The notes beneath the pieces are model-generated. The model did no database searches, had not been told where the DNA came from, and saw only the letters and a list, made by a program, of their open reading frames with translations. The translations under genes were made by a program, and so were the position numbers. A stretch of DNA of 64,000 bases from Actinomycetota bacterium (GTDB lineage: Bacteria > Actinomycetota > Thermoleophilia > Gaiellales > Gaiellaceae), in assembly GCA_046728975.1 (NCBI GenBank), contig JBKPFU010000073.1, forward strand, positions 5,095 to 69,094, read 5' to 3'. How positions within the stretch are numbered: the stretch's first letter is position 1; each line of letters begins with the position of its first letter. Below are positions 32,573 through 34,015 of this stretch, one piece after another.

Positions 32573-33314
32573 CAAGTGGTCGTCGATCAAGCACAAGAAG
32601 GGCGCGGCCGACGCCAAGCGCGGCAAGCTCTTCTCGAAGCTCTCGCGCGCGATCATCGTTGCCGCGCGGGAGGGGGGACCCGATCCGGCCGCAAACCTCG
32701 CGCTGCAGAACGCGATCGAGAAGGCGCGGTCGTACTCGATGCCGAAGGAGAACATCGAGCGCGCGATCGCGCGTGGATCGGGCGCCGAGACCGATGCAGC
32801 CGCCTTCGAGACCGTCGTCTACGAGGGATACGCGCCGAACGGCGTCGCGCTGATCGTGGAGGCGCTCACTGACAACCGCAACCGCACCGCCTCCGAGGTG
32901 CGACACGTGTTCTCGAAGAACGACGGCAACCTCGCCGCCTCCGGGGCGGTCGCATGGCTGTTCGAGCGCCGCGGCATCATCCTCGTCTCCGCCGACGGCG
33001 TCGACGAGGACGAGCTGACGCTTGCGGCGGCGGAAGGCGGCGCCGACGATGTCGAGCTCGACGGGTCGACGTTCCAGATCACATCGACGCCCGAGGCGCT
33101 GAGCGCGGTGCGCGAAGCGCTCGAGCAGGCCGGGATCTCGTACGACTCCGTCGAGACGACGATGGTTCCGAAGACGACCGTTCGCCTCGACGACGAGAGC
33201 GATGCACGGAAGATCCTGAGGATCGTCGACGCGCTGGAAGAGCTCGACGACGTCCAAGAGGTCTACGCCAACTTCGACATCCCCGAGAACGTGCTCGAAG
33301 AGGTCGCAGCCTAA
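32559..33314 (+). CDS. yebC: YebC/PmpR family DNA-binding regulator
   Basis: GTG at 32559, 8 nt after aagggagg. N-terminus [28 protein letters not shown]. Confidence 0.9.
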   Translation: [251 protein letters not shown]

Positions 33315-34015
33315 GTCGGGCGGCGACCCCTGCTGACGACCACGTTCACCCGCGTGCCGCGGGGTCGGCGAACCCCGGCGCGCGGCCTCTGCGAGATCAC
33401 GCGGCCTCGACGCATGACGGGCGAGTAGGCGCGTGCGACGGTGCCGAGCCGGCACCTGGCCCGCCGAAGAGCGACTCGCGCGCGCACAAGCGTGGTGCCG
33501 CGTAGCCGCGGAACGACGCACCGAAGCTGCTGAGCAGAAGCGGGCGGGGGCGGTGGAGGCGGCGAGGGTGGAGGAGGAGGCGGCGGCGGCGGGGGAGGCG
33601 GTGGAGGTGGTGGCGGAGGCGGAGGCGGAGGCGGAGGCGGAGCGCCGCTCGTCACGCGGATCGTCCCGGTCATGAACGGGTGCGGCTTGCAGTGGTACGC
33701 GTACGTCCCTTCACTCGAGAACGTGAACCTGAAGGCGTCGTTCGGCGCGAGGTCGCCCGAGTCGAACACGGCTGTATCCGACGTCGCGGTGTGGCTGACC
33801 GCGTCGGAGTTCTTCCAGCAGACGGTCGATCCGGGCGAGACGCTCACGTCGCTCGGGTGGAACGCGTACGAGCTGATCTCGACCATCACGTCGCCCGCCT
33901 GGCAGGCGCCGACGGCAGTGCGCGCCTTGCCGGATGCCGGCATCGCGCTGACGACCACGGCCAGCAACGCGATGTAGAGCCCTCTCCGCAACTCGCCTGA
34001 CCCTACGGGCCTCAT
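33311..34015 (-). CDS. Secreted cupredoxin / polyproline linker / PASTA domain fusion protein
   Basis: 234 aa with a signal peptide. Type-1 Cu ligand pattern SHTA...YHCKPHPFM. A run of P25-S-P7. C-terminal VPRLRGTTLVRARVALRRARCRLGTV...GRVISQRPRAG...VNVVVSRG matches the PASTA pattern. Confidence 0.75.
   Translation of the reverse strand: MRPVGSGELRRGLYIALLAVVVSAMPASGKARTAVGACQAGDVMVEISSYAFHPSDVSVSPGSTVCWKNSDAVSHTATSDTAVFDSGDLAPNDAFRFTFSSEGTYAYHCKPHPFMTGTIRVTSGAPPPPPPPPPPPPPPPPPPPPPPPPPSPPPPPPPASAQQLRCVVPRLRGTTLVRARVALRRARCRLGTVARAYSPVMRRGRVISQRPRAGVRRPRGTRVNVVVSRGRRPT
33542..33640 (-). repeat. Simple-sequence tract (NGG)n encoding 25 consecutive prolines, one serine and 7 prolines
   Basis: Codon-by-codon reading of 33542-33640. 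The tract includes (ggcgga)n-type microsatellite stretches. Confidence 0.9.

Follow-up and report, generated by a model that had tools for sequence, protein, structure and literature searches.

What could a blue copper protein, an uninterrupted run of 25 prolines and a PASTA domain be doing in the same polypeptide? The question is raised by an open reading frame (ORF) located between yebC and ruvC in a 64,000-nucleotide stretch of DNA (the window; positions 5,095 to 69,094 of contig JBKPFU010000073.1, GenBank assembly GCA_046728975.1) from an uncultured soil actinobacterium of the family Gaiellaceae. The source genome (G000) is a metagenome-assembled draft that consists of 212 contigs and is 83% complete. 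The ORF occupies 33311..34015 on the minus strand, stop codon included, and is open over 234 amino acids counted from the ATG at 34015. A sequence-only reading of the window had described it as a fusion of a cupredoxin, a P25-S-P7 tract and a PASTA domain. The analysis agreed, with both Pfam domains scoring above their curated cut-offs.

The answer that we favor, with a probability of about 0.6, is that the product is an exported amicyanin-type blue copper electron carrier held on the exterior of a single-membrane cell by a polyproline stalk and a basic PASTA anchor. The protein would be exported by a Sec-type signal, and the head would bind copper and act as a type-1 electron-transfer domain. 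The terminal PASTA domain, probably braced by a disulfide bond, would attach non-covalently to the envelope, the target being peptidoglycan and/or anionic wall polymers. In such an arrangement the tether would do what confinement in the periplasm does for the soluble blue copper proteins of double-membrane bacteria. The tail would be a reusable cassette of the lineage and the cupredoxin one of its many passengers. The strongest support for a tethered carrier comes from the cassette behavior of the tail, and further support comes from the other tethers found on the same cupredoxin family.

The C-terminal domain (amino acids 164-234; 33314..33526, minus strand) matched Pfam PASTA (PF03793) at amino acids 168-228 with an E-value of 2.2e-7 and 31.2 bits against a cut-off of 23.2, and the PASTA structure of Stk1 in the Protein Data Bank (PDB), 3py9, matched it at E 2e-5. 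In the AlphaFold2 (AF2) model the tail has the small alpha/beta PASTA fold with beta-alpha-beta3 topology and a predicted local distance difference test (pLDDT) score of 96-98. The helix spans residues 176-185, the strands 165-167, 189-196, 205-210 and 222-228, and a short bridge 216-218. The domain has a net charge of +22 and ends in VVSRGRRPT. Its cysteines, Cys166 (33518-33520, minus strand) and Cys188 (33452-33454, minus strand), are invariant in the tail alignment (26/26 aligned tails). Among the 49 tail-bearing proteins collected, the net charge of the tail ranged from +18 to +26, with a median of +22 and an isoelectric point of about 12, while the PASTA domains carried by PknB and penicillin-binding proteins (PBPs) of the same genome had net charges of -3 to +5. 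The basic tails end in VVSRGRR and are closer to the kinase-type than to the PBP-type PASTA domains. The spacer that precedes them contained at least 25% proline in 24/49 proteins and at least 40% threonine or serine in 7/49. Judged from their sequences, the basic PASTA domains are a distinct subclass that is polycationic, has two cysteines and is strictly C-terminal.

To follow this subclass, a tail hidden Markov model (HMM) was used that was built from the last 70 residues of homologs in the databases. It located the module in seven more proteins encoded in the genome, each time at the very C-terminus, and all of these proteins have N-terminal signal peptides. Six are intact, and their tails were all above the Pfam PASTA cut-off (24.1-45.7 bits): a family-5 solute-binding protein (SBP_bac_5), a lamin-tail-domain (LTD) protein with a proline-rich linker, a subtilase (Peptidase_S8), a metalloprotease (Peptidase_M36) and two FG-GAP propeller proteins. 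The seventh, a second subtilase (C111:17726-19927 and 17941-18240, minus strand), is frameshifted inside the tail and is either a pseudogene or the product of a sequencing error. A collection of 5.8 billion metagenome proteins added trypsins, subtilases, RTX proteins, DUF1996, delta-60 and TolB-like proteins to those that end in this tail. No kinase or transpeptidase was among the passengers in the source genome, and the tail is therefore outside the usual PASTA setting, the extracellular part of a PBP or of a Hanks kinase. The sequence-only reading had named PBPs and PknB-type kinases as the known setting of the domain; here it is not a sensor of that style but a member of a basic C-terminal subclass reused on at least seven other exported proteins. 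It is this polycationic two-cysteine subclass, common to so many unrelated exported proteins, that makes the tail read as a reusable anchor.

The distribution of the tail is patchy. The basic subclass separates from ordinary PASTA domains only at about 72 bits or more (E <= 1e-19), a threshold reached by 9/121 sampled genomes of the source order. A phylum-wide profile search at E 1e-8 returned mostly ordinary kinase and PBP PASTA domains. Three carrier genomes have 7, 6 and 4 copies, and one carrier lies outside the class. Searched against a representative library, the tail query matched 10,454 cluster representatives at E <= 0.001; the best 150 of these 10,454 (P0069-P0218) were dominated by giant tandem-PASTA proteins, one of which, 2187 amino acids long, had as many as 32 matched stretches.

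The head of the protein is an amicyanin-like type-1 cupredoxin domain (amino acids 38-123; 33647..33904, minus strand). Pfam Copper-bind (PF00127) matched amino acids 43-121 with an E-value of 2.9e-10 and 40.9 bits against a cut-off of 21.2, so that the cupredoxin as well as the PASTA assignment proposed from the letters alone found HMM support. The best sequence matches among solved structures were the amicyanins 2gb2 and 1aac (E ~1e-11). The HMMER alignment to amicyanin placed the SHT/YHCKPHPFM of the ORF on the PHN/YHCTPHPFM of amicyanin. The full ligand set is present, with H75, C109, H112 and M115 aligned with amicyanin H53, C92, H95 and M98. The ligand loop C109-K-P-H112-P-F-M115 is encoded at 33671..33691 (minus strand), just as the pattern YHCKPHPFM had been read before, and the fourth ligand, His75, at 33791-33793 (minus strand). 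The AF2 model, which was built on 44 aligned sequences, gave the domain a pLDDT of 97-98 and a Greek-key beta-sandwich. All top Foldseek matches of the model were cupredoxins with probability 1.00, and those to amicyanins had root-mean-square deviations of 1.4-1.8 A over 90 residues and template modeling (TM) scores of 0.72-0.77, normalized by target length. The best NCBIfam match was amicyanin TIGR02657, with 47.1 bits against an equivalog cut-off of 110.2. Since this score is far below the cut-off, the head is best described as amicyanin-like and not as amicyanin proper. The conserved pair Cys38/Cys66 likely forms a disulfide bond.

Relatives of this cupredoxin in metagenome data showed that it is attached in several ways. 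The nearest, P0003-P0005 (47-58% identical), keep the polyproline stalk and have a different, Arg-rich end domain of about 90 amino acids; P0017 has the same cupredoxin family followed by a C-terminal membrane helix. In P0021 and P0022 the cupredoxin, with loops CRPHPFM or CTPHPFM, is found at the C-terminus of pyrroloquinoline quinone (PQQ)-propeller dehydrogenase-like proteins, a position that in quinohaemoproteins is occupied by a cytochrome c domain. These fusions are a possible clue to the redox partners of the family. The basic PASTA tail also ends proteins of another cupredoxin family, which is related only marginally and has the loop CDPH-x3-4-M. The tail is thus shared by two distinct cupredoxin families, and P0002 carries both cupredoxin types. 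The PQQ-propeller fusions and the membrane helix suggest that the family is repeatedly held beside something and not left free, and the anchor position behind the cupredoxin appears to be swappable. The Arg-rich C-terminal domains of P0003-P0005, and that of a subtilase of the source genome described below (C82), had no Pfam match. That the Arg-rich ends of both constitute one family was considered and found unsupported (BLASTP E 2.6).

Several points weigh against a wall-tethered electron carrier, some of them concerning its tail and others its head. As to the tail, a charge of about +22 over 70 residues would bind nearly any polyanion, and it could therefore mean that the domain does not recognize the wall specifically. 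The genome also encodes two sortases, that is, another anchoring route, to which the PASTA tail would be an addition and not the only means. The tail might thus be a general polyanion binder, with extracellular DNA, humic or mineral surfaces or acidic lipids as targets; or it might be a folded C-terminal sorting signal for a dedicated system of export or processing, as sorting signals are also strictly C-terminal on many passengers. Still, HMM and fold both identify the domain as a genuine PASTA, and the PASTA fold is known to bind peptidoglycan precursors. Moreover, it lacks the hydrophobic helix of known tripartite sorting signals, and no gene family was common to the neighborhoods of eight carriers within 5 kb, which speaks against a dedicated sorting enzyme encoded next to them. 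We regard a function of the tail other than wall anchoring as unlikely, although it is the alternative that survives best.

As to the head, NirK was not found in the 83%-complete genome, and the search for PF06433 (methylamine dehydrogenase) gave no match there but was uninformative because its reference-genome controls had none either. The search for redox partners in the genome produced a sole PQQ_2 match, a weak one. The gene is dispensable, as only a decayed remnant is present in another species of the genus, G002. Type-1-site proteins, in turn, can also serve copper resistance, and some of them act in copper tolerance. These facts, together with a neighborhood that is not metabolic (yebC and ruvC), would suit a cupredoxin that handles copper at the wall by sequestration or resistance, as CopI-type cupredoxins do, instead of shuttling electrons, in which case the tail would still be an anchor. 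This explanation is at odds with a ligand set and a loop that are those of the electron carrier amicyanin, with the fusion of close cupredoxin relatives to PQQ-propeller dehydrogenase-like proteins, and with the lack of His/Met-rich copper-binding stretches in the ORF protein. Copper handling consequently seems doubtful to us, somewhat more so than a different role for the tail.

Head and tail are joined by a 40-residue linker, G-A-P25-S-P7-A-S-A-Q-Q (33527..33646, minus strand). The codon list confirmed, codon by codon, the 25 prolines, the serine and the 7 prolines that the sequence-only reading had placed at 33542-33640: amino acids 126-150 are exactly 25 consecutive proline codons (33566-33640, minus strand), Ser151 is at 33563-33565 (minus strand) and the second run, amino acids 152-158, at 33542-33562 (minus strand). 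The cupredoxin and PASTA domains share one frame across the tract, and the other two frames encode nothing comparable over it. The AF2 model shows the linker extended, with a pLDDT of 76-88. The polyproline-II helix rises 3.1 A per residue, and the 33 residues of P25-S-P7 could form a stiff polyproline-II rod of about 10 nm.

The comparison of the proline tract with that of a relative, as had been advised, was possible because the gene also occupies this slot in the sister species G001. The two proteins are 67% identical overall, and the linker of the G001 ortholog is P17-S-P4-A-P3-A-P4. In the codon alignment of the linkers, the proportion of synonymous differences (pS) was 0.70, with synonymous sites near saturation, and the ratio of nonsynonymous to synonymous change (dN/dS) was 0.04; it was 0.22 for the cupredoxin part and 0.21 for the PASTA part, values that correspond to purifying selection on all three parts. 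The total length of the linker differs by only 2 residues (39 vs 37), although the synonymous codons are scrambled. The pattern between the two species speaks for selection that maintains both the prolines and the length, which makes the proline rod a selected feature of the protein. Tandem Repeats Finder detected 3-, 6- and 39-nucleotide periodicity with a (CCGCCT)4 core, which makes slippage of the tract possible; the idea that the underlying (NGG)n tract behaves as a freely length-variable microsatellite did not hold in the face of the dN/dS, the pS and the nearly constant length.

Long proline runs also occur in other genes of the genome. P22 precedes the Arg-rich C-terminal domain of a subtilase (C82:5605-7248, plus strand), P16 occurs in a subtilase-like protein (C52:5382-6884, minus strand) and P19 stands at the start of a contig (C85:1-699, plus strand). 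Given these P16-P22 linkers, P25 marks the top of a range that is habitual in the lineage, even if the longest uninterrupted proline run after P25 among the 49 tail-bearing proteins was 10. A C-rich stretch upstream of a DUF-like acidic protein (C111:21200-22170, minus strand) contains 25-28 prolines in all three frames and is candidate coding sequence only. That P25 arose as an error of assembly or sequencing, or is a hypervariable microsatellite of no fixed length, and that the single ORF is an accident, is scarcely credible, for against the periodicity of the tract and the fragmented metagenome-assembled draft stand the two flanking domains in one frame, the independent assembly of G001 with the same gene, slot and near-equal linker but scrambled codons, and the P16-P22 linkers elsewhere in the genome.

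Translation of 25 consecutive prolines is a matter of interest in itself. The genome has one efp gene, encoding elongation factor P (EF-P) with a KPGKGG loop, and its presence makes the EF-P dependence of P25 translation plausible. The gene next to the ORF, yebC (32559..33314, plus strand; PF20772 and PF01709), belongs to the YebC/TACO1 family, of which no other member was found in the genome. Proteins of this family, whose role the sequence-only reading did not mention, relieve ribosome stalling at polyproline tracts, as reviewed in PMC13602936, which cites PMC12234827, PMC11990639 and PMC11381339 for that role. The two genes are convergent, and the TAG of the ORF (33311-33313, minus strand) and the TAA of yebC (33312-33314) overlap in the tetranucleotide CTAA at 33311-33314, in agreement with the antiparallel position and shared stop region described from the sequence. 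The stop-to-stop arrangement is also found in G001. It is conceivable that convergent overlapping transcripts, unseparated by a terminator, couple the supply of YebC to the demand created by the longest polyproline tract of the window, but we consider this very improbable. Chance may be taken as the default explanation for the adjacency, because it rests on a single evolutionary event in a variable slot.

The variability of this slot is apparent among relatives. In 19/29 of them yebC was found less than 1.5 kb from ruvC, and in these 19 the spacer ranged from 49 bp to about 1.3 kb and held unrelated inserts, a range and diversity that characterize the slot as variable. At L020 (G015), L021 (G003) and L037/L038 (G032/G036) the slot contains unrelated genes that by eye include an FHA-like protein and a small multi-helix membrane protein. 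The cupredoxin-PASTA gene fills the slot in 2/3 species of the genus. The third species, G002, has a 429-bp decayed relic in it (L018, G002:C21, ~1989-2419) in which some of the linker prolines and the end of the PASTA domain, now frameshifted (…RPRGTRMNLVVSRRRR), can still be made out, with the signal peptide and the cupredoxin deleted. Taken together, the gene is old within the genus and under purifying selection where it is intact.

At its other end the ORF is divergent from ruvC (34084..34575, plus strand; PF02075, E 6.9e-49), with a 68-bp spacer between them. This shared spacer includes a perfect 12-nucleotide direct repeat (AGGCGGTTTTCG, two copies, 34020-34043) directly upstream of the ATG, which is not kept in G001. 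A scan of the locus for promoters and terminators found none and was uninformative at 68% GC. The TTG at 33989-33991 (residue 9) may be the true start in place of the ATG at 34015, because the G001 ortholog begins at the aligned GTG. The putative N-terminal export signal, read from the sequence, covers approximately amino acids 1-29 (33929..34015, minus strand) and consists of a basic RR, the hydrophobic segment LYIALLAVVVSAM and then PASG; AF2 confidence was low over it, as expected for a signal peptide. A lipoprotein reading of Cys38 (VGAC at 35-38) was rejected on inspection, since K30 and R32 precede the cysteine and break the lipobox rule. Inspection of the ORF protein also revealed no LPXTG motif and no C-terminal helix, which places it in neither the sortase-anchored nor the lipoprotein class.

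A full-text search of the literature library used found no paper that joins "PASTA domain" and "cupredoxin", and nothing relevant on PASTA with plastocyanin, subtilisin, FG-GAP or wall anchor. Every match on C-terminal, single or "domain-containing" PASTA proteins dealt with PBPs or PASTA kinases. On the other hand, a check of domain architectures showed PF00127 and PF03793 together in no fewer than seven clusters of metagenome proteins, and such proteins are labelled in databases just as "plastocyanin" or "PASTA domain". The earlier remark that no described cupredoxin-PASTA protein was known therefore held for the literature searched, but the architecture is not unique.

Single-membrane bacteria must tether soluble electron carriers and exo-enzymes to keep them near the cell, for which lipid, transmembrane, sortase, LysM and SLH anchors and others of the sort are known. 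Should the PASTA tail be an envelope anchor, it would give a large group of soil actinobacteria, as yet uncultured, a further class of anchor, redefine the uses of PASTA domains and serve as a ready-made surface-display tag, and the cupredoxin would place respiratory-type carriers among the displayed cargo. The uninterrupted P25 is in addition a natural extreme substrate for studies of EF-P- and YebC-assisted translation.

Each element of the protein has a known counterpart, be it the fold of its PASTA domain, the tethering of a cupredoxin or the use of a modular wall anchor. With the PASTA domains of kinases and class B PBPs (PknB, PrkC, Stk1 3PY9, PBP2x), the tail has PF03793 and the beta-alpha-beta3 topology in common. 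Unlike them, it occurs only once per protein, at the very end of exported enzymes and carriers, and it is set apart by its two invariant cysteines, its basic RGRR end and a charge of about +22, compared with -3 to +5 in the kinase and PBP domains. In its reuse on many unrelated exported passengers, and in the proline- or threonine-rich spacer before it, it is similar to the non-covalent Gram-positive wall-binding modules LysM, SH3b, GW, SLH and CWB2 and to known proline-rich spacers, but it belongs to a different fold family. Among such spacers, TonB, the wall-spanning regions of surface proteins and cellulase linkers have mixed EP/KP or PT repeats, which the uninterrupted P25 exceeds by far in length.

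The head has the fold and the copper-ligand loop of the amicyanins of Paracoccus denitrificans and P. versutus (PDB 1AAC, 2GB2, 1ID2), with YHC-K-PHPFM in place of YHC-T-PHPFM and, in addition, the Cys38/Cys66 pair. Amicyanin is free in the periplasm and has neither stalk nor anchor, whereas the head of the ORF protein is followed by a stalk and a putative anchor. The auracyanins of Chloroflexus, halocyanin and sulfocyanin, blue copper proteins of organisms that lack a classical periplasm, are tethered by N-terminal lipid or transmembrane anchors. Like them, the ORF protein would be a small type-1 carrier held at the surface by a flexible or extended linker and an anchor; what distinguishes it is that the putative anchor is a folded, C-terminal domain of the wall-binding type situated behind a polyproline rod.

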